Positions 1 to 39,308 are shown, counted from the whole stretch's first letter. The stretch: DNA of 63,428 bases, filler included, from Licmophora abbreviata (GCA_900291995.1; 10 parts of 10 records of this genome joined end to end with filler, not necessarily neighbours in it); one strand, 5' to 3'. Notes: generated by a model from the letters alone, not told the origin. Made by a program: numbers and translations.

Positions 1-2609
1 GCAGTCACTTTGGGTCGCTTCCGCTTTCGTTTGCTAGCCTCGGCTTCGGCCTCTTCCGCTTTTGCTTGCTTTTCCATCATGCGAAGGAACTGCTTTTCTG
101 TCAATCCGTCGTCATATGCCACGGCCTTGCGTTTCCGCGAGTCGCCAAGAGGGTGAAGAGCGCTGTTTGAAGTATTCGACGGTCGCGCAGGGTTCTTGAT
201 CCAGTCCGGAACATCGTCGGGGCTAGTGTACATGTGCAGATGTGTCGAAGCGTTCAAATTGTCCACCTCGGTGTACAGCTCGAAGTCAGCCTCGTTATTA
301 CTGAGTAGCTCGTTGATATTCTCATTGTCAGTAGCGTCGCTGTCCGCATCTGCAGTGTCTGCCACCTCAGAGTCGGAGACCTCGTCAATTTCTGAAGCCT
401 TGAGATTCGACGTTGTGGTGTCAAAATCGGTCAGTAGAACTTCCATCATGCGCTTGCGCTCAAGACTATTGTCTTTCTCGACACTGCTCTTGTCGAACTT
501 GCCAGCCTCGACAACGAGCTCGCTCATGTTTAACTTCTCCGTTGCACGGCTCAAGATCTTCTCTTCGACCGGCGAATTAGTTACGAGGCGGAATACGCTA
601 ACGTTCTGTCGCTGCCCTATTCTATGCGCCCGGTCCTGAGCCTGAAGATCCATCATTGGATTCTGAGCGGGCGTCGAGGAGAGGTGCGAAGTGAAGAGCC
701 GAGATAATTAGGATAAAATGTGCCACCAAGACGTCCGTACTAAAACATATAGCCAAGAGTGTACGTACCCAGTCGGAATCAAAGATAATGACGACGTTTG
801 CTGTCGCAAGGTTGAGTCCGAGTCCACCCGCGCGGGTCGAAAGCAGCTGTGCGAGGATTGTCCGGGGTAGGTAAGCGGCAAATAACGAGCGCGAAGAGCA
901 CAACCATCTTGACACGCCAAGGACAAACTTACAAACACGAAGTATGGCGAATCGGGAGCATTGAACTGGTACATGCGCTTCTCGCGTTCCTCTGCCGGAG
1001 TCGATCCATCCAAACGCAAGGCGGAGTATCCGCGCAATGCAAAATAATCCTCGAGGATCGTCATGACTGCAGTCATCTGCGTAAACATTAGGACGCGGTG
1101 CCCACCAGCTTTGAGCTTTGGTAACATTTGATCCAACAGATGGAACTTTCCCGACGACCGAATAAGATTTTCGTCAACATGATAGCCTTCCGGGGAGAAC
1201 AAGAAGGGATGGTTGCAGACCTTGCGTAGCTGCATCACGACATTGTTGAGTCCTCGAGTAGGCTGCTGCTGCTCAACGAAGCCTGTGCCGAGGATGGACT
1301 TGTCTGCAGTTGCCTTCGCGCTGATCTGCTTGTAAAGTTCTTTCTGCCACGACGACAAATCGCATCGAAGTATCTTCTCAACCTTTTCAGGGAGCTGGTC
1401 AAGGACTTCACTCTTAACACGACGGAGCATAAATGGGCGAAGAAGCTCGTGAAGTCGGTGAATGATGAGCATTCTTTCTTCATTTGTCAACATCTGATCC
1501 GTACTTTCTTCGATTGCAGAAGACGCGCCGTAATTCGCGAACGGACGGTTGAACCATTGGTCAAACGATTCGACGGAATTGAAAATAGTCGGCAGCAAGA
1601 AGTTCAAAAGAGCCCAGAGCTCTGGGAGATTGTTCTAAAAGCAAACATAGACGGACATTGTTAGCGCCACATTGGACAGGGCGTTTTTGAACTTGCATCG
1701 GACAACGCGAGTCTCACCTGGAGAGGTGTTCCCGTCAAGAGGATGCGATTATTGGTTGAGTACATCGTACTCAAAGTGACGGCGAACTTGGACTGAGCGT
1801 TTTTCATTCTGTGCCCTTCGTCGACGATTGCATACTGCCACATAACCTTTCGGAGACTGGCCTTGTCCTTAATAATGTACTCGTATGTGGTGAGGAGCAC
1901 GTTGAACTGTCCCGTTCGTACTTCTTCTCTGTAGAGTTCCTTGCGCTGCTGAGGCGTTCCCTTGTAAGTGATCACTCTCGCTGATGGACACCACTTTTGA
2001 AACTCGTTCTGCCAATTCGATAGAGTCGACAGCGGTACGATGATGAGAAACGGGCCGAGGTTATTCTTGAACTCCATCAAGTACGCTATCAACGAAATTG
2101 CTTGGATAGTCTTTCCGAGTCTGTCGAAATAAGAGCGAGAATACATTGACGAAAACGTTAGAAGCCACAAAAAGAAACGAACGCTGCGCAGCAACAACAT
2201 TGAAAAGTACTGACCCCATTTCATCGGCCAAGATTCCATTGAGCTTGTTATTGTACAATGACACCATCCACTGCAGACCCGCAACTTGATACTCTTTCAA
2301 TTCGCCACCGACCAACATTGTCGGCTGTCGGACTTCTTCCGTCTTGAGATGAGCCGACGCGTAGTACGAGCCGGTTGATGCGGAGGACGCAGTGGCAAAC
2401 TCAGCTGCGTTGCGGTCCTCGTCTGATCGCCTCTGGAGCAGCGACGATATCTGCGTTATACATTCGTCTGTCTTGCCGAGTAAAAACTTGAGACGCTCGT
2501 TCTTGGTCGACTCCAGAAGTTTGGAGTACGCAGCCATATCATTCGAACGGAGAGCAGCCAAACGGGCACGCTCAGCTTGATCGGCTTCCTTTTCTTTCTT
2601 CTTTTCTTC
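1..2609 (-). CDS. BRM: SNF2/BRM (SMARCA2/4-like) chromatin-remodelling ATPase, partial at both ends; exons ~2609-2215, 2120-1718, 1634-933, 846-769, 662-<1
   Basis: Spliced product has [33 protein letters not shown] (Walker A), [58 protein letters not shown] and a SnAC-like [20 protein letters not shown] introns restore the frame at each junction. Confidence 0.93.
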
Positions 2610-2755
2610 CTTAAGATAGAACAGAGAGCTTGCTGTGACGGTGGCAACCACAGTGTCTGAGCTGTCAAGACGCTTCACGCCGCTGCGCCGCGACGAAAAA
2701 GGCGGGTGTGAAGCCCTTTTTGCGCGCGGCGTGCGGTACCAACACCCGATGCAAA

Positions 2756-2855
2756 NNNNNNNNNNNNNNNNNNNNNNNNNNNNNNNNNNNNNNNNNNNNT
2801 TAATTAATTAANNNNNNNNNNNNNNNNNNNNNNNNNNNNNNNNNNNNNNNNNNNN
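2756..2855. other. Artificial contig spacer (44 N + TTAATTAATTAA + 44 N)
   Basis: Identical 100-nt block occurs nine times; the 12-mer gives stops in all six frames. Confidence 0.99.
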
Positions 2856-5800
2856 CTCGTGCCTGGTAGTAGCGGAAACCGCTCTGGGTGTAGGGGCAGA
2901 AAGCAAGGACGGAGTAGGGGGCGGGGGGATGGTGACATCAATGGCGATGTACCGGGAGGGAGTGAGAGAGGTGGCCGGGAGGTATGTAGGAGAAAGGGTT
3001 ACGCCGACGTCAGCCGGACGCGAGTTGGAGTCAGGGATGAGGTGGGTTGGTTCGGACACCACACAGTGATGAGAGGAAGTGTAACCAGCAACTGGACATA
3101 GTTTGCGACACAAAAGAGTAAGGGTGTCCCGGAGGGTGTGGTGTAAGGGAGATTTACTGGAGTGGCGGCACTGGAAGAGGTGGTCCCCAAGCGGGTCCAA
3201 ACGGGTGCCACAAGTGCAGAGATGATCACGAAGCGCTGCGGGAAGGCACGGGAGACGTAGTTTACGTTGGATGGCAATGCGGAAGGTGGTGTTGGTGAGG
3301 CGATTAGCAACAACACGGCGGGAGGTTTGGGTAAGCGCCACACTGACCCAAGGAGTGGTGGTAGCTGCTGCGTTGGCCGACAAGGCCGGTTGGCTGTGCA
3401 GCGGCGCATGGCGAGTTTGCTTAAAGTGTTTACGGCAGACGGCGCGTTGAAGGCCGGGCAAATTAAGGTGGAGCACAAGACGGTTCAAGTGATAGGATGG
3501 TTCATTCAGCGATGGGTCTGGGCCTCGACGAGGAGGGAGGATGTGGAAGCGGGCTAGAGCCGTTCCAAGAAGGTGATGGAGCTGCAGGAGACGGGTAGAT
3601 GGAGTTTGCCAGTCCTGAAACAGAGCTCGAATGGGAGCGGGTAAATGCGCCGGAGCCGCATTCGGTATGAAAATCCCATTAGTGGCAATCCTGATTGAAC
3701 GGGTGACAGCGATGACAAAGGCCGGAGCGGCAGAAATGGAAGGAGCACGGAAGCCGAGGCCTCCCAGATTAGGTGGGAGAACCGCTAGATGGCGGGCATG
3801 AGGCGGAAGGGAATCAGGCGTGTCGGCAATCCGAGCGAGAAAGGAGTGCAAGATGGCATCGGCTCGGTCGACAAAGGGAGATGTCCAGTCAAATAAAGCA
3901 GGGGTAGAGGAAGAGGGGGGCATGAGAAAGTTGTAGTAAACGTCCGTAGCTAGTAGGTGTGAAATTTTGGTTTGCAGACACAGTCTATAGACGGTAGCCT
4001 GTGTCTGAAGATCAGGGAGTGTTCGGAGGAGGGTATCAACATAGTGCGACAGGTCATCGGCCTTCGCTTGGAGGAAGCGACTGGCAAATGCGTGGCTTCC
4101 CACAGGATGACCTAAGAGGCGGAGGCCGTCGGTGACTTCGGCAGAGGGCGAGAGGAGGTCTGTAGCGGCAGAAATGGCAGTAGCGGTAGCCGCCGGACAA
4201 AGCATATGGCCGGTGGGTGAAGTACCGGTAATGCTGGAGAGGAACTTAGTTTTTGACAGGTTGAGACGGATGCCGTGGGGTGCCCCAAGCTCCGCAAACC
4301 GTCGGAGGAAAAAAGGGAGATCTAGTGTGCGGAGAAGCGCCATAGTGTCATCCAGGTACTGTAAGGAGGTAGAAGGCGCATCAGAAGTTGAACCAGCGGA
4401 TCGAGTGGTAATAGTAGGAGATCGAAGCCGTTCGCGTTCCTGGAGTTCTGCATGTAAAGGGCGTAAGACCGTGAAGAGCACCAAGGAAGCATAAAACGGT
4501 GCAAGTGGGTCACCTTGGGCAAAGCCTTCTGGCTGAGCGAAGCTGGCCCATTCGTTAGTATCGTTTCGGTACCAACACGTGTTGTCGTCAGCATAAATCA
4601 GATCGAAGAAAGGGAGCATGAAGGGGAAATGAAGACAGAGCATGGATCGACAGGAGGCTCGAGAACAAGCATTGAACATATTTTGAATGTCCAAAGCCAA
4701 AAGGACTTGGCTTGAAGGTAAGGCAGTATCCTCTGGGGCGAGGGTACGGGAAACAAACGTGTGAGCGGCATGAACAATGGCATCCATGCCTCCAGGGATG
4801 CCGATACCCAGCTGACCCTCAGTGATCAGCAGGCTGGCAAATTGTTGGCCGTAAATGTGCATGAGGAGCGCACCGAGTACACGGCGGTAGCTAGTACCAG
4901 CTCCTATGGGGCGAAGCTTGGTCAGGTCATGAGGGTCCTTATGGAGGGCCAAGAAGTAGTTGCTGCGGAGAAGGGAGGTTGCCAGCGGTGGTAGATTTCC
5001 CGATAGCAAAGCCTCTGCAACCGCTAGAAAACTAGCTGCATACGGGTGTGTAGGCGGATCATCCGGGTTAAGCGGTGGTGTCGTGTGTAATATCATATCC
5101 CGGAGGAGGTCGGTGTAGTCCCCAAAAGGACCAGCTGCCGTCCCGCGTTTGAGTTTACGACAAGCGGCGAAGAGATCTGGCTGGGCGAGAGAAATCGTGG
5201 CGGTAGAGGAGGTTACTCGGGAATGGGATCGCGTGCGTGGGCCGGGCGGTGAAGAAGCGTTTGACGCAGTAGGGTAGCGGGGTGGATAAAGTGCACTGAT
5301 AAGATCGAGGGTCTCTGGTGTAAGCCGGGCAACCGGTAGCGTGGAGTCGATGCGCGAGGCACACGCCGCAAAGTTGTCCAAATCAGCCGCGGCCTGCGCA
5401 TGTCTGTTTGAACGGGGACTGTATTCGTCTGTTGTGATGGTTGCATCGTTGGCATCATCGGTGGAGCGGAGGTGGGTCGAAGGCGGGAGAATGGAATAAA
5501 GCTCATCAAACAACGGGCGTAACTGTCCGCTAGAGAGTAACTTGAGGCGAGCCGAGACTATAGCATCTGGCGACCTGTAATGGGAATGGGGACCAGGGTG
5601 AAGGATTAAGGGTTGGAAGAGGAACAAGAGGAGAAATGGGAGATCGGAGGAGCGCTGGAAGGCTGGAAGGGGATCGGCGGAAGGCGGTGTATCATAAGGC
5701 ATGACGGCATCGGCACATGCTTGGTGGAGTAGGGATAAGGTAGCATATAATTCTCGGTGGGTAGATCGAGAAAGGGAATAGTAGATATTGCTCCGGATGT

Positions 5801-5944
5801 TCGGAGGAGCAATAGGGTGAACTGCCACGTGCGCTTGCAGCCAAGCGAAGGCATGAGACCAAGCAGCGGGGTCAGCAGTCGGAAAGTGTTGGGCGAAGAT
5901 GGCGGACGTAGTCAAAGAGCGAGAGAAGGAATGTAAAGAGCGCT
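2856..5944 (-). mobile_element. CRE-clade-like non-LTR retrotransposon ORF (RT + CCHC zinc knuckle + restriction-like endonuclease); both ends lie outside the contig
   Basis: Uninterrupted frame across the whole contig. RT motifs: AAGPFG, LRPIGAGTSYRR, QLGIGIPGG, LDIQNMFN, GFAQGDPL (~4503-4517), YLDD (4347-4358), GIRLNLSKT, LLGHPVG, GGLG. Then CTCGTRLDPLGDHLFQC (~3168-3218) and the RLE-type RPADVG...IAIDVT. Confidence 0.9.
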
Positions 5945-6044
5945 NNNNNNNNNNNNNNNNNNNNNNNNNNNNNNNNNNNNNNNNNNNNTTAATTAATTAA
6001 NNNNNNNNNNNNNNNNNNNNNNNNNNNNNNNNNNNNNNNNNNNN
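5945..6044. other. Artificial contig spacer
   Basis: 44 N + TTAATTAATTAA + 44 N. Confidence 0.99.
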
Positions 6045-9904: not shown

Positions 9905-12146
9905 CTAAAAGTTAACCTGCTCTTCGGTTTCGGCAATCGGCCTGAAGCCGTAGTCTGTGATGAGGAAAACAAAAAAATTGCATGTGAGAATGATCAATAT
10001 CTAGCTTGCAACGCACGTTCTATCACCAATTCATCACCTACCGAATGTTCCTTGCTGCATTTCATCTTCCTCCTCCTTCTTGAGTTGTTCCATAGCCTTG
10101 CGCCACTCAGCGTCGATCGCGCCCGCACTCTCAGTGTTACACTCGTACTCGACGCTCTGCGATAGGGTCTTGACCAGTTCGGCCGCCAGCTCTTCCGGAG
10201 TAGTGCCTTGCGTTTCCGGAAGGTAATAAATCGTGAAGACAAACGTGAATAACAAGACGCAGGCGAATGGGACAAATGAATACGGTCCGAGGTACAGGTT
10301 CAAGTACGGGAATATCAAACCGACGATGAAGTTGCATGCCCAGTTGAGCTGACTGCAGGCTGACATGGCGACAGCGACGTACTTGGCATCAAACATCTCG
10401 GCAACAATCAGCCACGGGATAGGGCCCAGTCCAATCTCGAAGAATATTACATAGAAATTCACGGCAACAAGTGCAAGCATGTTGTTGAAGACACCCAACA
10501 AAGCCAAGACGATGACTATGCAGCTAAGAAACATACCCCCTGAGCTCCATAGTATGAGTGTCTACACACAGTGCCAGACAAAGAGTTAATAAAGTGTGAG
10601 CATCGCCTGGCAGCACTGAAAGAATGTCCTGTCAGAGAATTATCTCATTTACCTTCCTTCCGCACGAGTCCATTAGCAAGAGAGCTGCGTATGTGGCTAG
10701 CACATTGACGGCTCCGACAATGGTTGTTCCTACCAACGGATTGTCGATGACGCCCTTGAAGAAAGACGTTGAATAGTAGAAGACGGCATTAATGCCACTC
10801 ATCTGCTGCGCAAACTGAAGGACAAGACAAGAAATTAACAGCATTTTGATTTTGCGGTGAGAAAACATCTCTTCCAGGACTCCAGATTGAGATGGTTGTT
10901 CCTGTCGTTGCGCCGCCCCACCCAAGACGAAGTTTCCCACTTCCGTCTCAACTTCATGGTCGTAGCGAAGGCCACGAAGTTGCTTGATAATGTAACGGGC
11001 CTTGAGGGAGTTAGGGTCACGCCCGAGTAGCCAGCGAGGACTCTCCAGCAAGAATGGCGACATGACGAGCTGTAGCACTGCAATCATAACTGTGGCGGAA
11101 AACATCACGCGCCACAGAGATTCCGTCGCAAACTGGAACGCCAAAATGTCACTCACGAGAATGCCGACAACCAAGGCAAACTGTGTAAGCGTCCCCAGCA
11201 TACCTCGCAAGGTCGGAGGGGCCAACTCTCCCAGATAAATAGGAACCAGCACAGAAGAGTAACCGCTTGCGAAACCAATGATGAAACGACTGATAATGAT
11301 TGTGAACATGTCGAGCGCAAAGGTCTGCATCAACCCTCCCAACAAGAACATCCACGTGTCCATCAACAGAGCACCTCGTCGCCCCCTCTGATCCGCCATG
11401 CGCCCTCCCACAATTGCCCCAAACGGTCCACCGACTGCAAATGCCGCAACAGCCAGACTCCACGATGCCGTAGAGTGCCCGGGGAAAACTACGGCCTCGG
11501 GAGCATTCATAACGCCCGTGTTGTATCCAACCAAAAACTGCGACATGGCCGCCACAATTATGGCGAATACGAGCGGCGTGGTCACCATGACAGCATCAAA
11601 CTCGAGTTCATCGAGAATAATCATGCTAGCTCTCGAGCGACGGACTTCTCGGGCGTCGGCGGGAAGCTCCTTTTGATCCATGACATCGAGATCAGCTGCA
11701 TAGCTGGCAAAGGCTTGCGAGATGGTACGTTCCTTCTTCTGCATACCAAAGACGGCCGTAAAGGGAACGAGCTGGTAGAGCTCTTGGCGACCCAGCTGCG
11801 TGGGCGTGAGGTAGCTCATGGATCCATCGGCGCTAACGCTGTACGACTTTGGAAGGCCCTGAATTTTGGGTATGTCGCGCACGGTGAAGTGTCCCAGACT
11901 GCCCGAGCCACCCAGAGCCGCAATGCTTGCGCTTCGCTTGTGGCGCTGCTCGCGAGTACTGGAAGACTGACAAAAGCAACAAGGAGAGCAAATGTGTCGT
12001 GTAAGTATCAGGAGGTAATCGGCGCGCTGACTGACGGATGACACCCCTCCTGACGTCGATGCGAAGGAAGCAAATCTGTGACTTACCGATCCCTGTTCTG
12101 CATCCAGTTTCCGCCGCGCCAGTAGTTGCGTAGTTTCGGTGTCCAT
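9905..12146 (-). CDS. MFS sugar-porter (GLUT/SLC2-like) hexose transporter; exons 12146-12087, 11966-10653, 10561-10042, 9954-9905
   Basis: [78 protein letters not shown]; canonical introns keep the frame. Confidence 0.92.
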
Positions 12147-20706: not shown

Positions 20707-23700
20707 ATGTCGGAGGATGAGGAGGCATCAGGGCCTCCCCCCGCACTGGCAGACGACGCGTTGCCAGATACCGCCATGCTGGACAGTGAACAGCTCAATT
20801 CGGAGGCCTTTTTGGAGGCCTTGGAGAATCGCTATGTTCAACTGCAACAGGAGAAGGACGCTCTGGAAACGGCCGTCGCCGAAAAGGATTCCACGATCCA
20901 GGATCTTCGTGTCTCTCAACAGGACATGCAGCAGAGTCTCTTGACCAAAGAGACAGAGCTGGCGGAAGCGCAGCGCGAATCCTTGATCTATAAGGAAACC
21001 GGTGAAACGATCCAAAGTGAAAATCAGACCAAGCAGGAACGAATGGATCGGATGCAGGCCGAGGCAGATACCCTGCGAGCGGAAATTAGGTACGAGATGT
21101 GGTAATTTGGAATGACTGCGTGTGTGCCACAATCCTGCAAATCAAATTCACGCTTTTCCTTTTTGTCAACGCAGTCGACTTACGGAACGCAATGCAGTGT
21201 CTACTGAACGAATTGCAGAGCTGGAAACCATGTCAAAGCTTTCCGAGTCGGAGGCAGTCCCCCTTCAATACGAAGTCAATCGCACTCGCAAGGAACTCGA
21301 TTCTCTGTCGAGTCACACCCAGTGGCTTGAAACCGAGTTGGAGGATCGTAACAACAAGTTGATGTCGCTGCAGCAAAAGCATAGTGCGGAGCTCATGGAA
21401 ACGCGACAGTCGCTCGATCGCGCCACCGAAGGGCGAGACGAAGCTGCTCGAATGTTGTCCAAGGTGGAACTATCCAATGAAACTCTACAGAGACAACTGG
21501 AGCAGACCTCTACCGAGCTTAAGGATTCCAAGCAGGAAGCGGCGACAGCTGTGGAATCGTCGCAGACAGAACTCGTGCAAGAAAGGCGCTTGGTGGATCT
21601 ACAGAAGGAACAGCTGGATCGGCTGAGGACCAAGTACGATGATGCCGTGAAGGAGCTCGAGTCGCAGCGCTCGTTGGCCAGGGAGGCGTCCACCAAGACA
21701 CAAGAGCAGGTCGCCGCCCTAGAGTCAGAGCTCAAGGAGGCATCAGAGCGCGTTCTACAGGAGCAGGCAAGTAATTTCGAGCAGCAGCTGGGTGCACTTC
21801 AGACGCAAGTGGAAGAGGCCGTGCGCAAGCGTCAGGAGGCCGAAGATGGACTGCTCAACGCGCCCCGCCATCGCATTGTTGGCGCATCCATAGCGGAGAA
21901 CCCTGACCGACTGTTGGGTGCTGCCGAGGGTGACGAGGAACCTCTGAGCTTGACAGACCTCTATGAGCGTCTTAGCCAAACTGAAGATGAGCTGCGTGCG
22001 GAGAAAAAGGAGACGATGACCCTGAGGCTCATGCTGGACAAAATCCATGCTGATATAGCGGCCAGGACCCCGAAGATGGTTCGGCAGCGGCAAGAGTATG
22101 AGCGAGCCATGATGGAGGCCGACGAGGCACGTGGTCGACTCAAGGAAGCCCTGAGTGAAGTCAATTCTTTCCGCCAGGAGAACAGGGAACTGAACATCGA
22201 AAAGACTGAGTTGACTAGCAAGAATCGTGAACTGCAACAGGAGTCGCGCGATCTCGCGAAACAAGTGCAGGCTCTGCTTCGCAGCCGTGCTGGCGAAGAT
22301 CCCGGGGAAGGCATTCCCGTGTCAGTGGCTGATATTCAAACTCAGAACCAAACGTTGCTTCAGGAACATCGTCGTCTCAGTAATGACCTCTCGGATCTAA
22401 GAGAGCAGCTAAGAACTGACCCGCTCAAAATCCGCTGCGAAAAGGCGGAGCGAGAAAGGGACACTTTGCGAGAGAACGAGAAACGCCAGGAAACACTTGT
22501 GGCTGGGATCGTTCAGCAACGTGACCTGTATCGGGCTTTGTTAGCGAAGCACGATACCGCCCTGATCAACGAATCGACGACTGAAATCATTGAAGCGCAG
22601 TCCGAGAAAACGAAAAAACTAGAAGAACTCAAGATTTCTCTCGAAACTGACCTGGCGAAGGCCATGACAGAGTTAAGTGCTGCAAACAACGGAAAGGAGG
22701 TTCTCGAGCAACGCGCGGCTCGTTATGAAGCGCACACTTCTGAATTGACATCTTCGGTCGACAAGCTTCAGGCTCAGTTGGGCTCGGCTATGGCGGACAT
22801 TGCTAGGAGCGAGGCCGACGCCGGCTATCACCGCAACAAATGCACACGACTGGAGGAGTCACTGCAGCTCGCCCGCGATGAATCGATCCGTATCCAGGAT
22901 GCTAAGGATCAGATGCAGACTGTGAACGGTGAACTGCAGCAGACAGTTGCGAACGCGAACTCACGAGTGATGCAATTAGAACACGAGCTTCGGCAAGTGC
23001 AACGGAAATTGAACCTTTCCGAAGCTCAGGTTCAGACCGCAAAGGCATCCGAAAGTCGCTTATCACAGGAGGTGGCACAGCTTCGGAATGATGTCGCGCG
23101 TCAAGGTGCTCTCTTGGAATCGGTCCAGCGTATTGAAGCTAGCTTGTCCGCAAAGAGTGCGGAGCAAACGGACGCACTCAAGGAGGAAGTGGGTCGACTC
23201 ATGCAGAGAATCGACACGGATCAGTCCAAGCATTCGCTTGAAAGTGAGAGCCTCAGCGGCCGAGTTCGTGAACTCGAAGCTGACTTGAAGGAGCTTGATT
23301 CGAAAAGAGAAGCCGCAGTTGCTTCGATGGTGAAGGCCAAGGAAGAGTCTGCATCAACCATGGCAAGAATGAAAAGCTTGGAGTCGCGTTGCAATCAGCA
23401 AGAATTAGAGCTACGATCGACGAAGAAGAAGCTGGGAGAAAACAACGAGACCGAAGAAGAAAATCCGGAGGTCGAACTGCAGAACAAGGTGGATTCCCTG
23501 ACGACGGATCTTGAAGAAGCGAGATCAGAGCTAGCGACAACGCTACAACGAGTGGAAGACTACCAGAAAATTGCGAAGGCAAGTGAGGATGCGCTGGGCG
23601 ATCTGACACGATCGACGAATGAGTACAAGAATGCGAAGGATACAGAAGTAGAGGAGCTGAAGAAGACAATCGACAGCCTAAAGGCAGATTCTGAGTCGAA

Positions 23701-26700
23701 GCAAGAAGTAATCGTCGATCTCACAAAAGATCTCTCGAGTCAGCGCGGTGAGCAGGACAAGGTGGTCGCTGAAATCAAGGGTAAGGTTACGCATTTGGAA
23801 GAAGAGGCGACCGCATTGCGGAAGGACGCCGAAGCAGCGACTTCACGGGCATCGGCAATCGAAGCCGAAATCGCCACGTATCGATCAGAGGCCATAGCAG
23901 CACAAAACAACTATGAGCGAGAACTGAATCTTCACTCGACGGCCCGCACGGATCTGCGCAAAGCTCGAGAGAACACTGAGACCGAGATCAGACTTCGAAA
24001 GATCTCGGAAGAGCAGCTCGACAGCCTGCGACTAGAAATTGAAGAGAAAGGAAGAATGTGGCTCGAGGAGAGATCGGCCTTGCAAACCACTGTGAAAAAC
24101 CTTGAAAAATCACTTGAGGAGAGTAGGGCGCAGAGTGATGTGCTGCATAGCCAGCTTGCCACCCTTGGCGATCAGGTCGAACGGAGTCAGTCCGAGCGGA
24201 TCGATGCAGCCACAGAAGAAGGATCTGTTCTGGACACTGAAGAAGTTGGCGCGTTGCGAAAGACAATTACTGAGCTGCGAGAGGTGGTGAGATTTCTGCG
24301 CTCGGAGCGAGAAGTGTCGCAGGCTCAAGTAGACGCAGCTCGCCGAACAGCTGAACGCGAAAAGGCTGCCACGGTTGTGACAAGGAGAAGCCTCGAAGAG
24401 GCTCGTGCGGAACTGAAGGTTCTTAGAGATAGACATGTTGCATCGTCGGTAGAACCTTCAGAGCGTGACGATGCAACGTTGACTAGTCTGAAGGCGGCGG
24501 AAGATCAGCTCACCTTGCTTCGTGAAAGCAACAAGCTTCTTCGCGACGAAACCGTGGTATTGAAGACATCCGTTGGGGCGCTCAAGTCGGAGTTGGACGC
24601 GACAAAGGTCTCGATGGCTCCCAACGAGAAGAAGCAACGTGAGCTCGAGGTTGAAAAAGTCGCTCTTGAAGCAGAGAAGGCGAGCCTGCTTCGAGAGATC
24701 GAAGCATGGAAAGGAAGAGTTCACAGTTTGGTTTCAAAGTTTCATCAGGTAAGTTCAAGTGTGTGGTTGTCCAATTGATCTAGAGGAAAGAAACGAGAAG
24801 ACTAACGTGCTCCCGATCATGTCTAGATTGACCCAGAGGATCACAAGAAAGCTCTAAAAAAGGTTGAAGACTTGTCAAAACAGTTTGATGAAGCCGAGTC
24901 GCAGAAGGCTGGTGCACAGAAAGAGCTCTCAAGCGCTAAGACGTTGATGTCACGTATGAACAAGGACCTTGCTGCTCAGAAAGCGCTTGTAGAAACGCAC
25001 AAAAAAATGGTCCTGAAGATGCAATCGGCTGCTTCCTCCAAGGCGTCGGCAGAAGTGGTCAAGGAACGCAACGAACTGAAACAGAAAATCAATCAACTTG
25101 AAGAGTCGTCCAAGGCAACTAAAACCGAGCTTGACGGAGCGAACCAGAGGATTGAGGGACTCAAAAATCATCTTCGAAACTTCCAGAAGCAGATATTGGA
25201 CTTGCGAAAGAAGAATAGTGAATTGGAAAAGGCGGCGAGAGCGCCCACTGCCTCAGCTCGCTCGACTGTCTCCGACAAAGCAACCGAAACTCAAGGAGAA
25301 GCAGCTCGGAAGGCGTCTCCTCCTACAGCCACAAGGCCGACTCCAGACGAGACCCGGGGGGTTGTGGCCGCGGAGACAAGCGAAGATGAGAGAAAAACCG
25401 AAAACGTTGCGTTCACTCAGGCAAAAGTTCAGAAGAAGCCATTGCCTACCCTGCCAATTGGCGGGTTCAAGTTTGGACCTGGCTCAACTGAGTCTTCCAA
25501 GTCAGATGCTCCAGGGGCTGATGGCCCGCCGAAAGCTCTGTCCGATCCGGCCAAGGGGGAAAAAGAAAAGTCAGTCGCCGAGACAGAGACGCAGCGACCC
25601 GTAGAGGCAACCAAAACGATGTCTGCCGAAGATAAAATTCGCGAAAGGCTCCTTCAACGAAAGCGCAAGGCTCTCGAGGGTCTAGAGAAAGCAAAGGGTT
25701 CAAAGTCGATCAAAGCCACGGGCGCAACAGAGTCAAAGCCCGCCGAGAATTCCCTTGAACCCAGTGAGGAGAATGTGGCTAAGGAGCCAGAGATGGCAAC
25801 CGTTCCCCCGGCGCCCGTCCCAACGCCTTCTACTCCTTCGAATCTTTCGGTCGCTGCAGCTCCATTTAAACCATCATCTGTTCCGACGGAGCCTGAGGCG
25901 ACCGCGAGAGAAGACGCTGTCTCTGGCGAGAAGCCAGCAGTCGAAGTACCCGTGTCCCAAGCTGATGAGGAATCTGCACCGGCCGAAGAATTCAAGGACG
26001 ACGATCAGGGTGAGCCTGAAGTGCCTTCATCCGAAGCCACCGGGGATGTAAGTACGGAGGAAGGTGAGCAAACGTCTTCAGTCAACGCTACGGAAGAAGG
26101 GAACGGTGAAGGCGAATACACAAAGGAACAGACAAAACCAGCAGCTTTTGGATCATCTACGACATTCGGCTCAGGATTTGGAGGCAGTGCGGCGCCCTTT
26201 GGAGGTGGAGCATTTGGGTCAGCTGCTCCGTCGGGTTTTGGAAGTGCCCCGTTTGGCTCAAAAACGTCAGGCGAAGCAAGTTTTGGCAGTGGCAGCTCGT
26301 TTTTGGACATGAAACCTCCCGGGTCCAGCTCCGCACCCTTCTCGTTCGGATCTTCTCCCAACATTAAGCTCCCTCTCCCAGCGATGGGTGCCCCTGTCCC
26401 ATCAAAGACGACGTTTGGATCATTTGGTGGGGGCGTGGCGCCTTCAGCGTCGAAGACGGCGTTTGGCGGTGCGTCTCAGACCCACCAACCTTTGTTTGGG
26501 TCGTCGGCTGGGACGAAGAGTCCGGCTCCAGAGAACGACGATACGGAACAGGCAAACGAAGCGAAGGAACCGCGTATTGAGGAAGACGACGAGGGAGAAG
26601 GTGACGCTGAAGGAGATACCATCGAAGCAGACGATGCAGAAGACGACGATGAAGAGTACGAGGGTGACGAGACTGGGGGCGACGAAGAAGCGGAAAACGG

Positions 26701-26737
26701 GGAGGAGGATGAAAATGAACAGGAAGCAGAGGAATAA
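20707..26737 (+). CDS. TPR: Nucleoporin Tpr/Mlp1-like nuclear basket protein; exons 20707-21089, 21175-24748, 24827-26737
   Basis: Very long coiled coil with Tpr/Mlp hallmarks: LSLTDLY, IAARTPKMVRQRQEYE, IVQQRDLYRALL, AQNNYERELNLH, LREVVRFLRSERE, QLTLLRESNKLLRDE, WKGRVHSLVSKFHQ|IDPED. Disordered FG-rich and acidic tail. Confidence 0.88.
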
Positions 26738-29230: not shown

Positions 29231-30160
29231 ATGGCCCCTAATGTTGTTTCGTTTGCGACTAGCATCGCCGATTTGGATCTATCTCTGGTGGATACAACGG
29301 CGAAACCTCTTTCAGAATTGATTCGAGAAGAAGACTGGAGCGCTGTCGAGGCACGAGTAGACCAATGTCCGGCAGAAGTGCGCATGCTCAGCAAGGTGAC
29401 CATTTTTGGCCACAAAGTCCAAGCCTATCCTCTTCACTACCTCATGAGCAAGAAAGACGCTCCGCCTAAACTGACTAATCTGTTTCTGCATCTGGCAAGT
29501 ACCGCCGCAAGTACTCCCGACTCGGAATTTGGCAGTCTGCCGATTCATCTCGCATGTCAACACGATGCTTCCTTGACCGTCATCGAGGCCTTGGTGAACG
29601 AGTTTCCAGAGGGCTTGTCGACTCCGGATAACAATGGAAACCTACCCATCCACTACGCCTGCTCCCTCGCTACTCCCCAAGTCGTTGGCTTCTTGCTGGA
29701 ACGCACGGACGACGAGGCCCTCGCCAGGAGGAACGAACGCAAACAAAACCTCCTGCACCTGGCATGCTCTCGCTACGATGTCTCTGGCGACATGGTCACT
29801 ACGCTTCTCGACGCCAACGAGGTCTTTTCCCACCAACGAGACTGGCAAGGCAGATTCCCTGTCCACAACGCTTGCATGTGGCATGCCGACACTCCCGTCG
29901 TCAAGGCGCTGCTGAAAGCCTACCCCGAAGCCATCCACGCCGCCGACGTGCATGGCCTGAAACCTTACGGTATTAGTCGCAAGTGTGTGGCTCTCAATAC
30001 TTCTCACCCGACGATCCAGGTCCTACGACACTACCGCAAACAACAACACAACTTGTTTGTCCGCGGCATGGACGTGGCGCAGTTTGCTTCGGAAAACGTA
30101 AGCGACCGCCTACACCACCACAATAAGCCTGTTCATGCTCCTCGCAACCTAGTGGACTGA
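29231..30160 (+). CDS. Ankyrin-repeat protein
   Basis: Repeats YPLHY, GSLPIHLAC, GNLPIHYAC, QNLLHLAC, GRFPVHNAC, GLKPY. Confidence 0.88.
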   Translation: MAPNVVSFATSIADLDLSLVDTTAKPLSELIREEDWSAVEARVDQCPAEVRMLSKVTIFGHKVQAYPLHYLMSKKDAPPKLTNLFLHLASTAASTPDSEFGSLPIHLACQHDASLTVIEALVNEFPEGLSTPDNNGNLPIHYACSLATPQVVGFLLERTDDEALARRNERKQNLLHLACSRYDVSGDMVTTLLDANEVFSHQRDWQGRFPVHNACMWHADTPVVKALLKAYPEAIHAADVHGLKPYGISRKCVALNTSHPTIQVLRHYRKQQHNLFVRGMDVAQFASENVSDRLHHHNKPVHAPRNLVD

Positions 30161-30803
30161 GCAGCATTCATAAGCTACCGAATATTCGATGTGTCGATAT
30201 ATGTCAAAGATAGAATTAGTAAAATCTTAATAGAGCAGGTCCTAGTCTACTGCTGTTCTACAAATTGTATGGATGTTCTGATGCGAAGCAACGTATAGTG
30301 GACGAATGATGATCGGAAGCTGAGCTGAATAGAACTGGGAAGAAAATAGCAAACATGGTCTACCTAATTCCAGCTAGAGCTCTTCAGTCCAACATCCCCT
30401 CCTGTTGCCCTCATAGATCTCGATCGTTCACCTTCTGAACAAATTCTAGACTGCCGGTACATGGGCCCTAACGCTCAACGGCTAAGCCTATCATTTTGCG
30501 TTCTGACTGTCACTGCAACGCAAAGAACAATCGGGTGTCACGCAAACTCCGGCAGAATCAATACATCCGGGACGTGCGTTTTGACTCTTATGGCGCTTCC
30601 TCCACAGAAGCAGCTACAGGACGTCAGAGTGACATAGGTCTGTATGTTGACCACAAGTTCAAAGTGGATCTGAAATCGCTGCAATCGACATAATTTGACG
30701 ATTACACCATGGCGGGACGACCGGCCGCGCCATTTCTCGGCGTTGAGATAGATCACTCGGCGGGTTGATCGTACCTAATAGGCTATTGAACGTTGCTTCG
30801 ACC

Positions 30804-32300
30804 ATGTCGTTTGCAGATGAACCGATGGATAGAACTGAATATCCACCTTTGGTCGACATTGGTGTGAATTTGACGCACCCACCACTACGAAAGCACTGGA
30901 AGGAAGTCGTTCAGCGTGCTCTGGATGCTCGTGTTGATCTAATCGTATTAACGGGTACATCCATTCAAAGCTCCAGAGAAAGTATTCATATGTGCCGTGA
31001 GTGGCACCGAGAAAACGGCTCCAGAAATATGGTAGCAACCGTCGGCCTGCACCCTCACAACGCCAAACATTTCCAACCGGAAGCCTCGACGCTCCAAGAG
31101 ATGACCGATACCGTCAACCAAAACCCAGACTTCGTGGTGGCTATCGGAGAATGCGGTTTGGACTTCAATCGAAACTTCAGCTCGCGGGACCAGCAGATTG
31201 ATGCCTTCCGAGGGCAGGTCCGATTGGCTTGTAGACTGAACCTACCGTTGTTTGTGCACGAGCGAGAGGCCCACACGGAGCTGCTGAATATTCTAGATGA
31301 GGTTCAGAGCGAGTCTTCTGCCCTCCCGCCTATTGTCATTCATTGTTTCACCGGTAGTAAGCAAGAAGCTCTGAAGTACTGCGAGCGAGGATATTACGTT
31401 GGTTTTACTGGAGTGATCTGTAAGAACGAACGAGGCGCTCATCTGCGAGACTTGCTTCCAGACGTCCCAATGGACCGTGTTCTGCTCGAGACGGATGCTC
31501 CCTTTATGAGTTTCCATAAGGTAGGGAAGCGACGACATAGTGAGCCAACCGATGTCGTGGACGTGGCAAGAACTCTGAGTCGCTCGACGGGACTGTCATT
31601 GGCGGAAGTATGTGCTGTCACCATGAACAACTCACGGAGATTTTTTCGACTGGAGGAATCAACAAATTCCACAAGGCACGACACCACCACGTTTGAGAAG
31701 CTTCAGCATCGTCTATGGGTTCTCGAGAAGTGGAGAGAGCTGGCCGTGCGCCCGCGGCTAGACGAGTGCGACCCTGAGGATCTCTCGCTGCTTGAAAATC
31801 TAGAAGACGATTGCGGAGAACTCGCGATTCGATGCCTCAAGGCCCGACAACGCATGAACGACAATCTGCCATCACATGAGATAGCCCTTGACAATGATCT
31901 GCACGCCGATATTAGCTCTATTTCGAATGCAGGCTATGGGCTTTATTATCGTCCAAGATTAAAAGGGAGCTTCATCCCAAAGGGACAGACAATTTGTTTC
32001 TACTGCGGACACATTCATAATTTCATGTCTGCGAAAACTGTGGATGACAAGTCGTATTTAATGCTAATTTCCGGAGATGTTCTTGTCGATCCTGGTCCTC
32101 TCCCAAAAATCAAAGCCCGATACATCAATGATCCTCTGAATCCAGAGCGGACAAACTGCACATATGAGCCACAACCAGATCTCTTTCGGAGTGCTGTTGT
32201 AGCGACTCGGGATATCTTGCCGGATGAGGAACTCTTCTCGAGCTACGGAGATGGCTACTGGGCGCAGCAAGGCATCGTCGGAACTTTCTATCGCGGATAG
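30804..32300 (+). CDS. TatD-family nuclease fused to a C-terminal SET domain (single intronless ORF)
   Basis: TatD (~30850-31650): DIGVNLT, TVGLHPH, VAIGECGLDFNRNFS, LFVHEREAH, IHCFTG, LLETDAPF, NSRRFF. SET (~31900-32260): SSISNAGYGLY, ARYINDP, NC, ATRDILPDEELFSSYGDGYW. No stop between them. Confidence 0.88.
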   Translation: MSFADEPMDRTEYPPLVDIGVNLTHPPLRKHWKEVVQRALDARVDLIVLTGTSIQSSRESIHMCREWHRENGSRNMVATVGLHPHNAKHFQPEASTLQEMTDTVNQNPDFVVAIGECGLDFNRNFSSRDQQIDAFRGQVRLACRLNLPLFVHEREAHTELLNILDEVQSESSALPPIVIHCFTGSKQEALKYCERGYYVGFTGVICKNERGAHLRDLLPDVPMDRVLLETDAPFMSFHKVGKRRHSEPTDVVDVARTLSRSTGLSLAEVCAVTMNNSRRFFRLEESTNSTRHDTTTFEKLQHRLWVLEKWRELAVRPRLDECDPEDLSLLENLEDDCGELAIRCLKARQRMNDNLPSHEIALDNDLHADISSISNAGYGLYYRPRLKGSFIPKGQTICFYCGHIHNFMSAKTVDDKSYLMLISGDVLVDPGPLPKIKARYINDPLNPERTNCTYEPQPDLFRSAVVATRDILPDEELFSSYGDGYWAQQGIVGTFYRG

Positions 32301-32335
32301 GGACAATGCGTCACTAAGTGTTTAAATATTCATTG

Positions 32336-34786
32336 CTAGAACTTCCGTCTGCGTTTCTTGGCTTCATGAGTTCCGGCGATCTGCTTGCGCTTTCCTTGTT
32401 TCATCGTGTTCTTTCTACCACGTTTGGATCGAGTTGCGGCTGAGAACTTGGTCATCAAGAAATTCTTCTTACGTGTCTTTTCGATATTAGTCGAACCACC
32501 ATCACGTTCTTTGTTTTCAAACTTCGTCCGTCCGGCAATGATCTGCTCTAGCTTCTCGGCCTTGCTCAGGCGCCTTCGTTTCGCTTCGGCCATGATGTCG
32601 CCAGGAGTGACCGTCCCTGCAATGTTCAACCTCTCGTCATCCGAATCCGAATCGCTGCCATCATCGTCGCTGAGCTCTTCGAAGTCTTTGCCCTGCGCAA
32701 TGGCCCTCTTCCGACGAGCAGCCTCTCTCGGATTCCTCCTGGCACGCTTCTCCCTTTCAACGAGCTTGCGCATCCTATCAAAATCGGAAGCGGAAAACAC
32801 CCGACTGGCCGACACTTCCTGCTTGAGTTTCTCGCGCTCAGCAGGCGTCAGTTTTGACAGATCAAGGGCTGGATCCAATGATCTTTCATCAGTGACTGCC
32901 GGCTTAGCATTGTTACCCTCCAACTCTTCTCCCTTTTTAAGGAGGACGAGATCCGGCGCAGAGTCGTCGTCACTCTCAAGTTCGTCATCCTCCGACTCGT
33001 CGTTCATTCTTTCAGCCTGAATACCGTCATCTTCGCCGCTGTCATCAGCAGGTTCAGAGTCGCGGCGCTGATGTTCTGTTTTCTTCGCTTCGTACTCCAC
33101 AAGCAAGTCTGCACCTTCGACACCAGCAGCTACCTTGTGCTGACCATATCGTAGAGGCTTTTGCCCGGCACGATGTAGTGCCGATCCCTTCATACCACGA
33201 TCTTTGCCTTGCAGAAGCGACGGGTGAACCTCCCGGATGAAGTTCGTCCACGCCTTTCCGGCAATCGAGACAGATCGGTCGCGGTGATTTGAGTATGCCG
33301 CCAAGTCTCGGGCAAAGGCTTCGATATCCATGGCAGTGCTTTCGGATTCTTTGCTCTCTTCCACGGATAGTGCCGACGGCACTCGGCCGCAAATGGCCCG
33401 TGCCGCGTTGATTCCCACAGCCATTTGCTCACCAGAGCATCTTTCCGTGATAAAATTGTGTGCAATCGTCTTCAAGATGCCATAAATCTCTTCCGGGGGT
33501 ACATATTCGTGGCATGCCTGAACGGAATACGCTAGGATGGCCGTAACATCGCGTTGGTGACCACCCATGTACCGCTGCAAGAAAGGATACAGGTTCAAAA
33601 GCAAGAGCTCGTGATTTCCCACCAACCGCGTTACAAGGTTCATCATGAGAAGCTTTACCTCGTACTTGTACGAGCTGTTTGTGGACTTTAAACGCTTCAA
33701 GACAGCCTCTGCTAGTCCCTGTGGATCCCGCAACAACTCAATGGCGGGATATAGCTTCTTGGATGCCTCCACTCCTTCATCGTGCTCTAGATCCATCCAC
33801 TCGGACCGCTCTTTCTTTAGCTGCGCCTTGCGTCGATGTTTGAGTTGTTTTGCCACCCTCCGCTTACGCGATGCCGTCTTTCTTGAATGCAAATGAAGAT
33901 TCACATGGTTTGACGACTGCCATTCATCGTCTTGCTGCTGCTGTTGGTCCATGGCCATTTTCTCTTCAATGTTGAGAAAGAAGCGCATGGCACGACACGT
34001 GGTTGTCGTGTTTGTGTGAACGACCGCCGAAGCCAAAATGGCGACAGCACGTTCGTCCACCCAGACTTGCCGCCGGTACAAGTCACACACCATATCTGTG
34101 GCCAATTTGGCGGCACAGATCGTCGAGGACGAAGAATCCGTCGATTCCGGACTCACGACGACGCGGTGCAGGAAGGACTGCACACTGCGATTGACGGCAT
34201 CGTTTCGTTTGCCTTTCACATTCATGTTTCGAATATCATGAACCATGTGACTGTATAACAGCTCACGCAGAGCCTTGTCGGGGATCACCACCATTAGCCG
34301 GAAGAAGAGTTCTAGCAAGCGCAGTGGTGGGATGGCGCCCTTGTTGCGCATCAGAATAAGAGCGGAAACGCAGGTTTTGCGCACATCACGATGCAGTTGC
34401 AAAGCAGCCATTGACATGGAAGATAGAGTCGAAACGTTAGGAGCAGCAGTGGCCGGGGCTCCACCACTGTCGGTTGCCCCCTGCTGTTGACCCATGAGCA
34501 AATTCATGAGCATAGTAGCAATTCGATCCGACTCTTCTCCCTTATAACTGCTCGATGAGACGGCCGCGGCAAACTGAATCAGTTCAATGAGATTCGACGA
34601 GGGTCTCTCGGTACTACTTCTAAGCACTAAGATTCCGCACTCGCTTTCCAATCGTCGAACCTGGGCTTGATAGTCGTCAAGGTAACCCGCCGGATCACGC
34701 TTGACCATGTTCTGAAGCTGACTGAGTTTCATCGTCACGTCGACGCGTGTTCCGGCGCCGGTCGCGACGCCTGCAGATGCAGACAT
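32336..34786 (-). CDS. SDA1: SDA1 ribosome-biogenesis protein
   Basis: LSQLQNMVKRDPAGY, ALILMRNK, YPFLQRYMGGHQRDVTAILAY, QACHEYVPP, IAHNFITER, VGINAARAICGRVP, STNIEKTRKKNFLM. Confidence 0.93.
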   Translation of the reverse strand: MSASAGVATGAGTRVDVTMKLSQLQNMVKRDPAGYLDDYQAQVRRLESECGILVLRSSTERPSSNLIELIQFAAAVSSSSYKGEESDRIATMLMNLLMGQQQGATDSGGAPATAAPNVSTLSSMSMAALQLHRDVRKTCVSALILMRNKGAIPPLRLLELFFRLMVVIPDKALRELLYSHMVHDIRNMNVKGKRNDAVNRSVQSFLHRVVVSPESTDSSSSTICAAKLATDMVCDLYRRQVWVDERAVAILASAVVHTNTTTTCRAMRFFLNIEEKMAMDQQQQQDDEWQSSNHVNLHLHSRKTASRKRRVAKQLKHRRKAQLKKERSEWMDLEHDEGVEASKKLYPAIELLRDPQGLAEAVLKRLKSTNSSYKYEVKLLMMNLVTRLVGNHELLLLNLYPFLQRYMGGHQRDVTAILAYSVQACHEYVPPEEIYGILKTIAHNFITERCSGEQMAVGINAARAICGRVPSALSVEESKESESTAMDIEAFARDLAAYSNHRDRSVSIAGKAWTNFIREVHPSLLQGKDRGMKGSALHRAGQKPLRYGQHKVAAGVEGADLLVEYEAKKTEHQRRDSEPADDSGEDDGIQAERMNDESEDDELESDDDSAPDLVLLKKGEELEGNNAKPAVTDERSLDPALDLSKLTPAEREKLKQEVSASRVFSASDFDRMRKLVEREKRARRNPREAARRKRAIAQGKDFEELSDDDGSDSDSDDERLNIAGTVTPGDIMAEAKRRRLSKAEKLEQIIAGRTKFENKERDGGSTNIEKTRKKNFLMTKFSAATRSKRGRKNTMKQGKRKQIAGTHEAKKRRRKF

Positions 34787-37133: not shown

Positions 37134-39308
37134 TCATGCGACGACACCGTTGGAAGGCGTAGGTGCCTTTGCAATGAGGTTTCGCTCTTCTGCAACATCG
37201 ATGTCGAGATGGTTGTAGCCGTCGTCCCCTCTCTGAAACAGTCGTTCAATCTCCTCCAGAGATAATCCTTTCGTTTCAGGCAGAGAAAAGAACAGCCAAA
37301 TGAAACCTGCCAGAGAAATTGCACCATAGAACCAAAATGCACCGTACGCCGTCAGTACGCTCGGACTACTGATCGACAAGAACGTTGCACTCACAATCAA
37401 GTTGCCAATCCAGTTGGTGGCAGTACTGAGACTGACTGCGAGCGACCGAAATTTGAGTGGATAAATCTCCGAGTTGATAGTCCACGGCATACCGCCCATC
37501 CCAATACCAAACGCCAACAAGTATAGGACCATGAAGATAACAGACGCATATCCGTACGGATTCGGACACGACTCGTAAATCCAGTCCGCCGAGCACGTTC
37601 CATCGTCCTGAAACGGCGCCGTTACGTTGCCCTCGACACACTGTCCATTGCAAAACCCGCACCCATCCATGTGCGCACAGTCGTAACAGTATGCTGTGAT
37701 TCCATTCCATACCAGTGCTGGTTCCTTGGCGCATTGGGAAGATGTATTTGTGACGGGAAATGACGACGTCCGGGCCAGATAGAACGAACTGCCAAGTCCA
37801 ACGAGGCACAAGGTAACTAGTGATAGGGACGTTAGTACGAGTTGCCGTCGTCCAACGCGTTCCACCAGATAGATGCTCAAACCAATGCCGACGACTTGGG
37901 CAAGTGCCGTGTAGCCACTTAGCCAGACGGCAGTCATTTCTGTGTTGCAAACAAAATAGGAGAGGGGTGTAAGCGAATTCATCGATCACGATGAAGGAGA
38001 AGCCGGAAGTCATGGCGAACAGCAACACAAAAGATGCTCACGTACCGTCAAATTGAGACATTTCATAAATGCTCGCTGCATAATACTGGTTGCAACATAA
38101 CAAATGCACGATTCGTAGTGAGCATACAGTTCACCTTCCAATATAACAAGTCCGCTTGTCTCACGTACCATGACAGTGTTGATGCCCGCCATTTGCTGCA
38201 ACAGCATGATGCCACAACCAAGGGAGAGCGCTCGTCGAGTAGGAACGTCGGAGAGCATGGCGCCGACACGGGTGAAAAACGACTGTTTGTCCGCCTCTTC
38301 CTGCGCCATCCTGGACGCCTGTCGACGGAGCAGCTCTGGGTCGGACGAACCGGCACCGTAGGATGGCGAAAGAGATGGAACACCCAGTATGTCATCTTCG
38401 TTTTCTATTCTGGATGTAGGAAGGTCCTCCTGTTCCTCTTCACCGTTGATGGGCGTCAAGGCATTGACAATCTCTACAAGTTCCAACTGTGCTTCACTGT
38501 CACTCGCACGTATACTCTCCAAGACGTTTCGCGCTTCTTCATAATGTCCCTGCATGGCAAGCCATCGTGGCGATTCCGGAAGATGGCATAAAAATCCCCA
38601 CAACATGGTCAAACTTGGCAGGGCCGCCAGTCCCAACATGTAGCGCCATCCAGAAATGGGAAGGAGTTCATCAAAGATTCCATCGACCATGCCAGCAATG
38701 AACTGACCCAGCGTGACGAGTAAGGCATTGATTGTAACGAGCTGTCCACGCATCTCTGGGACTGCCACTTCAGCAAGGTAAATGGGGGTGGTGAGGGAAG
38801 CTATTCCAATGCCAATCCCCACAATCACTCGTCCCAGCACGAGACTGGGGTAGTCCCAGGCAATGCTCAATCCCAAACTTCCAATCGTAAAGACAAAGGC
38901 TGCAATCAGAATACTCTTGCGCCGTCCAAGCTGTGTATTTAAAGACCCTCCGATCAACGAGCTTCCAAAGGCAGCCAGTACAGTGCTACTGACGACGACC
39001 TCTTCTTGCCAGGGATCGAGATCAAAGGCCCGTTGAATCGGTAGCATGGCGCCACTGATGACTCCCGTGTCGTAGCCAAAGAGAAAACCCCCGATGGCTG
39101 CCATGGTTGTGAGGAATCTCATTTTTCGTTTCACTCGCGTGTCACGAAGTGGGTCTGTGATTCCAACAGTGTCGACGGGGGTTGCTGTTGCCGATTCTGA
39201 TGAAACCATCTCGTAGCCCCTACTATTGCTGCTCCTGCTGCTCACGACTGGATGCGACTGCGGGAGAGTCTCTGGAGGAGGAGAGGATTGTTGCAGTTTA
39301 GGAGACAT
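37134..39308 (-). CDS. H+/myo-inositol transporter (HMIT/INT-like, sugar porter family); exons 39308-38169, 38085-38046, 37939-37134
   Basis: [85 protein letters not shown]; Cys-rich loop [17 protein letters not shown]. Confidence 0.9.

Follow-up and report, generated by a model that had tools for sequence, protein, structure and literature searches.

The reading frame analyzed here lies within a 63,428-nucleotide stretch of DNA, filler included, from Licmophora abbreviata (GCA_900291995.1), the whole of which is referred to here as the window. The frame starts at the first ATG downstream of an in-frame stop (30744-30746) and continues uninterrupted to its own stop codon (Table 1). Pfam assigned two domains to the encoded protein, TatD_DNase and SET, both above their curated cut-offs. 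The frame is flanked by an ankyrin-repeat open reading frame (ORF) and by a convergent gene for an SDA1 ribosome-export homologue. The stop codons of the fusion ORF and the SDA1 gene are 36 bases apart (window 32300-32336), so the 3' UTRs of these genes must overlap or be extremely short.

Other long ORFs within the window were matched by Pfam to TPR/Mlp, sugar transporters, DHHC palmitoyltransferase, malate synthase, RING helicase, Misato, Dus, and TTI1. The named relatives of both halves of the fusion are diatoms, including Thalassiosira profunda, Skeletonema marinoi, Cylindrotheca closterium, Odontella aurita, and Licmophora paradoxa. Since these ORFs are typical of eukaryotic nuclear genomes and the relatives are diatom proteins, our data indicate that the window is an intron-poor, diatom-type nuclear region. 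No further copies of TatD or of the SET module were found in the 63-kb window.

Table 1. Coordinates of the fusion ORF, its parts, and its flanking genes, counted from the first nucleotide of the window.
Feature	Position	Strand	Remark
TatD-SET fusion ORF	30804..32300 (stop codon included)	+	498 codons, uninterrupted
TatD-type metal-dependent nuclease domain, residues 17-282	30852..31649	+	Pfam PF01026
M274, in-frame ATG within the last TatD helix	31623..31625	+	23 codons ahead of the SET module
True linker, residues 284-296 (EESTNSTRHDTTT)	31653..31691	+	Unconserved; no in-frame ATG or stop
Complete SET module, residues 297-498 (three N-terminal helices, SET core, C-terminal YW segment)	31692..32297	+	
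Three helices at the front of the SET module (residues 296-313, 324-330, 337-353)	31689..31862	+	DSSP on AF2 model
SET catalytic core, residues 390-482	31971..32249	+	Pfam PF00856
Ankyrin-repeat ORF, flanking gene	29231-30160	+	
SDA1 ribosome-export homologue, flanking gene	32336-34786	-	Pfam

The two halves and the spacer between them

We found that the TatD match spans the whole profile (positions 1-253 of 253) with an E value of 7.9e-60 and 202.8 bits, compared to a cut-off of 27, and that TatD homology extends to L283 (nucleotide 31652). The motifs GECGLD (residues 115-120), VHER (151-154), IHCF (179-182), and ETDAP (229-233) are present, and residues E116, H152, H180, E229, and D231 are invariant in an alignment of 30 sequences that includes the window. 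We take these residues to be the metal-binding and catalytic Glu/His/His/Glu/Asp set, with roles assigned from the E. coli TatD structures. At least 90% of 29 TatD relatives agree at 78 alignment columns, and the window retains 77 of these. Profile searches of the PDB matched bacterial TatD proteins (3rcm, E 1.2e-50; E. coli TatD 1xwy/4pe8, approximately 1e-49) and the other subgroups at higher E values (TATDN1, 2.5e-30; YcfH, 2.9e-29; YjjV, 2.9e-21; TATDN3, 1.9e-20). The N-terminal half aligns end to end with the bacterial enzymes (1xwy, 4pe8, 4p5u, and 3rcm; E 1e-49 to 1e-50) and has in common with them both the Glu/His/His/Glu-Asp set and a 'DIGVNLT' start, which replaces the HxH of YcfH-type members. 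Our data indicate that bacterial TatD proper is the nearest of these subgroups to the TatD half, ahead of YcfH, YjjV, TATDN1, and TATDN3. The top NCBIfam model, NF007745 ('3'-5' ssDNA/RNA exonuclease TatD'), scored 209.9 bits, far under its equivalog cut-off of 395, as expected for a eukaryotic homologue; the closest sampled TatD relative is 61% identical. TatD is a Mg2+-dependent 3'-5' exonuclease that acts on single-stranded DNA and RNA. Given the residues that are kept, the TatD half is predicted to be a 3'-5' nuclease and is probably active.

The C-terminal half matches the SET profile with an E value of 1.8e-7 and 32.0 bits, compared to a cut-off of 22.4. An AF2 model, which covers the SET module alone and not the entire fusion, has a pLDDT of 94.3 and a pTM of 0.87, and Foldseek matched this model to MLL3, G9a, and SET7/9 (E approximately 2e-7, probability 1.00). 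A profile search also matched G9a/EHMT2 at 3e-8; Y-x-G, the NH-motif Asn, and the Tyr of ELxxxY line up with their G9a equivalents. The SET motifs lie at residues 375-380 (NAGYGL), 399-403 (FYCGH), 438-446 (ARYINDPLN), 475-482 (EELFSSYG), and 485-486 (YW). DSSP placed helices at module positions 12-29, 40-46, and 53-69, with pLDDT of 96-97, and the R, L, E, W, E, A, and P residues of the helix motif are invariant or near-invariant across the SET-module family. The complete family signature, F..L..RL..LE.W.ELA.RP before the SET core followed by ARYINDPLN and YG..YW, is found in the window. Among 48 SET-module relatives, 38 columns reach at least 90% conservation, and the window retains 36 of them, the two exceptions being the start Met, now unneeded, and an F-to-Y change; the closest sampled relative is 57% identical.

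The G-x-G, Y-x-G, ELxxxY (with its catalytic Tyr), and YW residues are invariant across 49 aligned sequences. Where the canonical motif has Asn-His, the window has Asn-Asp (within ARYINDPLN), as do all 49 family members aligned. Since every aligned member carries it, the ND motif is a trait of the family and not a lesion of the fusion copy, and given the Asp at this position methyltransferase activity cannot be taken for granted. Our data suggest that the module is a SET-fold protein of a variant subfamily and a putative methyltransferase. The ND motif and the absence of pre-SET and post-SET zinc clusters would fit a small non-canonical lysine methyltransferase and not a classical histone enzyme.

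The initial annotation had described a complete TatD barrel running, in one stop-free frame, into a complete SET domain, and had quoted motifs for both. The open frame with both Pfam domains, the full-profile TatD match, and the SET-fold model of a module conserved nearly throughout bear out this description, and all of the quoted motifs were found in the translation. The helical linker of approximately 80 residues (FEKLQHRLWVLEKWRELAVRP...) proposed between the domains had to be reassigned: this stretch is helical but conserved, it is integral to the SET-module family, and the real spacer comprises 13 residues. The four stand-alone TatD relatives examined terminate 2-8 residues past the FF motif, and the conserved part of SET-module relatives starts at the residue directly after the spacer, which confines the spacer to the segment listed in Table 1.

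The 45-nucleotide junction contains no ATG in any frame and no in-frame stop, and GC3 is alike in both halves (0.525 and 0.498). The in-frame ATGs nearest to the junction are M274, within TatD, and M351, within the module. By hand alignment, position 274 is Thr in four stand-alone TatD relatives and Met in the fusion. M274 is the sole candidate start for a hypothetical 225-residue SET-only product, which could be made if an internal transcript exists. We considered an intron separating the halves unlikely, as by eye there is no GT in the spacer before position 31691. A GTATGT at 31609 was rejected as an intron donor because its use would delete the conserved end of TatD.

Six sequencing runs matched parts of the stretch at small shares (0.33 at best), through contigs from low-depth marine metagenomes. 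Contigs from four of the six runs leave positions 31565-31777, junction included, uncovered. Run X6, guessed to be RNA, contains a 193-base contig over 32150-32342 that cannot count as expression, and no RNA run was found among the listed runs that match the stretch.

Occurrence of the halves and of their fusions

We found no second TatD+SET protein in any protein, locus, or literature search, in keeping with the initial view that the architecture is non-standard. Among the best 120 full-length matches (273-872 residues), 84 contain TatD only and one contains SET only. The multi-domain matches comprise TatD with RNA 3'-phosphate cyclase (25), DUF4326 with TatD (8), DUF2368 with TatD (1), and TatD with PF04909 (1). 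None of the 120 combines TatD with SET, and query cover never exceeded 57%. Pfam detected no TatD in the 29 SET-half representatives of at least 316 residues among the 150 listed, the remaining 121 being too short to hold both domains, and no SET in seven matching proteins of 873-2490 residues. The exact fusion protein is absent from approximately 15 billion catalogued sequences, and the ESM Atlas gave no usable match. In the literature collection searched, no paper combines TatD, SET domain, and diatom, and those that mention both domains along with fusion describe no such protein, judging by their titles and the starts of their abstracts. Since the nearest sampled relatives of the two halves are just 57-61% identical, close kin are unsampled, and since there is no second instance of the fusion in the searched data, conservation of the architecture cannot be shown. 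Each half belongs to a known superfamily; nothing like the TatD+SET architecture was found in the searched data.

TatD proteins had also been described as usually single-domain, which stands for the larger part of the matches (84 of 120) but not for the cyclase (25), DUF4326 (8), and DUF2368 (1) fusions among the 119 that bear TatD. The proposal that two neighboring genes had fused found no backing, as TatD was absent from the flanks of 20 metagenome loci that carry the module; they are distantly related, many of the contigs are short, and just 7 of the 20 have at least 1.5 kb upstream. Read-through of adjacent genes was rejected as an origin on the same count (none of the 20 related loci has a flanking TatD).

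We found the SET module to be widespread. When 1.84 billion representatives were searched exhaustively with HMMER, 492 matches at E <= 1e-3 were returned, 151 of them at E <= 1e-10, hosted by diatoms and marine eukaryote metagenomes. Residues 285-498 of the fusion matched 18 proteins of 274-594 residues that are 38-54% identical over 93-98% of this half. Stand-alone SET-module proteins are 183-376 residues long, most of them approximately 210-300, with their own start and an N-terminal tail that is variable or absent; many metagenomic ORFs of 208-242 residues begin right at the helix. At 15 of 16 loci the module forms an ORF of its own, complete and closely preceded by a stop codon, while at the remaining locus (L011) the ORF starts mid-module near a contig end. 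The fusion copy departs from this family trait of an own start codon and a small stand-alone protein. Our data indicate that the three-helix plus SET module of approximately 205 residues is an uncharacterised stramenopile/diatom family that is otherwise a small independent protein.

Bacterial and other diatom TatD enzymes are single-domain proteins of 260-340 residues, to which the fusion adds a C-terminal SET module. Stand-alone SET proteins (such as P0122, a Licmophora paradoxa transcript, and P0120, P0124, and P0139) are 43-57% identical across the C-terminal half and have the same helix, ARYINDPLN, EELF.SYG, and YW motifs but are independent ORFs, while the fusion has a whole TatD enzyme in place of their N-terminal tail.

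The SET module has been joined to another enzyme in P0126, a protein of 594 residues from an environmental assembly that carries a JMJD7 orthologue (Cupin_8, 2.2e-47 to solved JMJD7) and the same SET module. As in the window, the module of P0126 (54-57% identical) is C-terminal to its partner and the join lies just before the conserved helix; unlike in the window, a Cupin_8/JmjC lysyl hydroxylase homologue takes the place of the nuclease at the N-terminus. The JMJD7 fusion was found in 1 of 18 relatives and in none of the 20 loci, and JMJD7 was not found near the SET module in the window or in those 20 loci. P0126 thus combines a lysyl hydroxylase homologue and a putative lysine methyltransferase in one chain.

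The TatD clade has been joined to other domains as well. In oomycetes, TatD of the same clade (44-47% identical; P0089, Phytophthora) is N-terminal in a two-enzyme protein with an RNA 3'-terminal phosphate cyclase, and the cyclase is C-terminal to TatD throughout these fusions (P0089-P0121 and P0282-P0284). The oomycete partner is an RtcA-like enzyme of RNA ends, and its fusion to TatD is widespread in oomycetes, whereas the SET fusion is found just here. In sequences from other marine eukaryotes (P0065, P0066, and P0075, among others), the TatD clade carries an N-terminal DUF4326 or DUF2368. The cyclase and DUF fusions hint at a role of this clade at RNA ends.

SETMAR/Metnase, a primate protein, has a SET domain and a mariner transposase nuclease on one chain, and its SET domain is among the profile matches of the SET half (3bo5, E 3.9e-4). 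It is the closest analogue in principle, since it too combines a SET methyltransferase with a metal-dependent nuclease, and it is the textbook example of how a protein of this sort could operate. The two architectures are not homologous: in SETMAR the domain order is reversed, the nuclease is RNase H-like and not a TIM-barrel amidohydrolase, and the SET domain is of another subfamily. Diatom-restricted SET proteins have been described before. According to citing descriptions, BacSETs are Bacillariophyceae-specific SET-domain methyltransferases (Nemoto et al. 2020, bioRxiv 10.1101/2020.11.23.393678; PMC11151724) that are tied to the building of the silica cell wall and share their expression pattern with wall genes (bioRxiv 10.1101/2020.11.23.393678). 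Restriction to diatoms is a likeness to the SET module, which was compared to BacSETs through these descriptions. Secretory targeting is a further BacSET trait. In contrast, stand-alone modules begin at the helix with no leader that is obviously hydrophobic by eye, and the TatD barrel of the fusion starts at residue 17, which leaves no room for a leader.

Interpretation of the fusion

We hypothesize that the ORF reflects a genuine gene fusion, specific to its lineage, in a nuclear genome of diatom type, and that it encodes a two-enzyme polypeptide of 498 residues in which a nuclease of the TatD-proper type is followed by the 13-residue spacer and the SET module, and we hold this to be somewhat better than an even bet. 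The fusion would have deleted the stop codon of TatD together with the module's own start and variable N-terminus. Since these signals are lost, the module would normally be translated from the TatD start. Both enzymes are presumed active, judging from the residues kept. The short flexible spacer would tether TatD to a small putative lysine methyltransferase, and the fusion would thereby enforce 1:1 co-expression and co-localisation of the two. The SET module might dock on its protein substrate via the conserved helices and the substrate groove, which would bring the exonuclease to the nucleic-acid partner of that protein, or the roles may be reversed. Capture of the same SET module by another enzyme in P0126, and the frequent fusions of the TatD clade, provide a precedent for such an event.

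An assembly or sequencing error could have created the join or removed a stop, or a separate SET-only protein could be made from M274 via an internal transcription start. In line with this, no independent contig spans the junction, the protein is missing from all catalogues, and M274 replaces the Thr of four relatives at a short distance before the module, where it would yield a product whose size fits that of many stand-alone modules (208-242 residues). A chance misjoin, however, would need the right frame and exact borders of both domains with just 13 spacer codons between them. Composition is even across the join, no ATG is available within the junction, and, barring a sequence error, the lack of an in-frame stop obliges ribosomes translating TatD to read on through the SET module. 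Restoring a stop would turn the SET module into a pseudogene with no start, even though nearly all of its conserved positions are intact. The in-frame join exactly at both domain borders, the even composition, and the conserved SET module argue for a real fusion, and we regard an artefact or a non-fused SET product as improbable. By the same sequence evidence, the join is probably real and the ORF is probably a true gene.

The main rival to a two-enzyme protein with a joint function is a neutral fusion without one, in which the join is real but the halves act as independently as the separate diatom proteins, as beads on a string, sharing no target or pathway. The combination is unique in all of our searches, the TatD and SET-module genes are not neighbors in the 20 related loci, and the linker is short and unconserved. 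The SET module has also been joined to the unrelated JMJD7, and distant SET relatives to glycosyltransferases, a class I methyltransferase, a CoaBC-type flavoprotein, and LRR; such unrelated partners suggest opportunistic fusions. Nothing directly opposes a neutral fusion, the intact halves being compatible with either view, and we consider it unlikely overall while giving it real weight. A catalytically dead SET half whose sole job is to bind proteins or to target the TatD nuclease would account for the Asp in place of the canonical NH His in all aligned members and for the modest Pfam score (32 bits). The ND motif is, however, invariant across the family together with G-x-G, Y-x-G, ELxxxY, and YW, and this joint invariance indicates a conserved active site. 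In solved SET enzymes the NH-motif His touches SAM mostly via its main chain, and there are active PR/SET enzymes that do not have this His. We therefore find a dead SET half very hard to credit.

If the fusion is real and expressed, it would be a natural nuclease tethered to a protein methyltransferase. JMJD7 is a lysyl hydroxylase of the translation GTPases DRG1/2. The JMJD7 fusion, together with the oomycete cyclase fusions, points weakly toward RNA or translation and away from chromatin. We speculate, with only a slim chance of being right, that the SET module is an unrecognised stramenopile family of non-histone lysine methyltransferases acting on RNA- or translation-associated proteins, that the JMJD7 and TatD captures are Rosetta-stone marks of a single network for repairing or modifying RNA ends and their bound factors, and that in this organism the grip of the methyltransferase on its partner protein delivers the nuclease to RNA or DNA. 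Since a single, unconserved fusion is a weak clue, its practical value will be modest until expression and activity are shown. Fusion partners are nonetheless among the few computational clues to the function of orphan enzymes, and this fusion offers a handle both on eukaryotic homologues of bacterial TatD, whose cellular substrate (DNA or RNA ends) is debated, and on a widespread, uncharacterised family of small SET proteins.

Further observations within the window

Several other ORFs within the window are of note in their own right. A 964-residue ORF (2808-5702, minus strand) has a weak RVT_1 match of 27.1 bits, under the cut-off of 29.6, and GC skew peaks at 0.22-0.30 over positions 2001-6000, the region of this ORF, which is probably a retroelement. 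Two ORFs on the minus strand (10632-12146 and 38010-39308) have partial sugar-transporter matches, one to profile positions 2-317 and the other to 2-232 of 452; these are probably genes that continue across introns, or else truncated copies. On the plus strand, positions 21230-26737 contain a TPR/Mlp-like ORF (1182 residues) and, after it, an ORF of 596 residues without a Pfam match; the two may be exons of one long coiled-coil gene. The AT skew of this region is marked, at 0.25-0.29.
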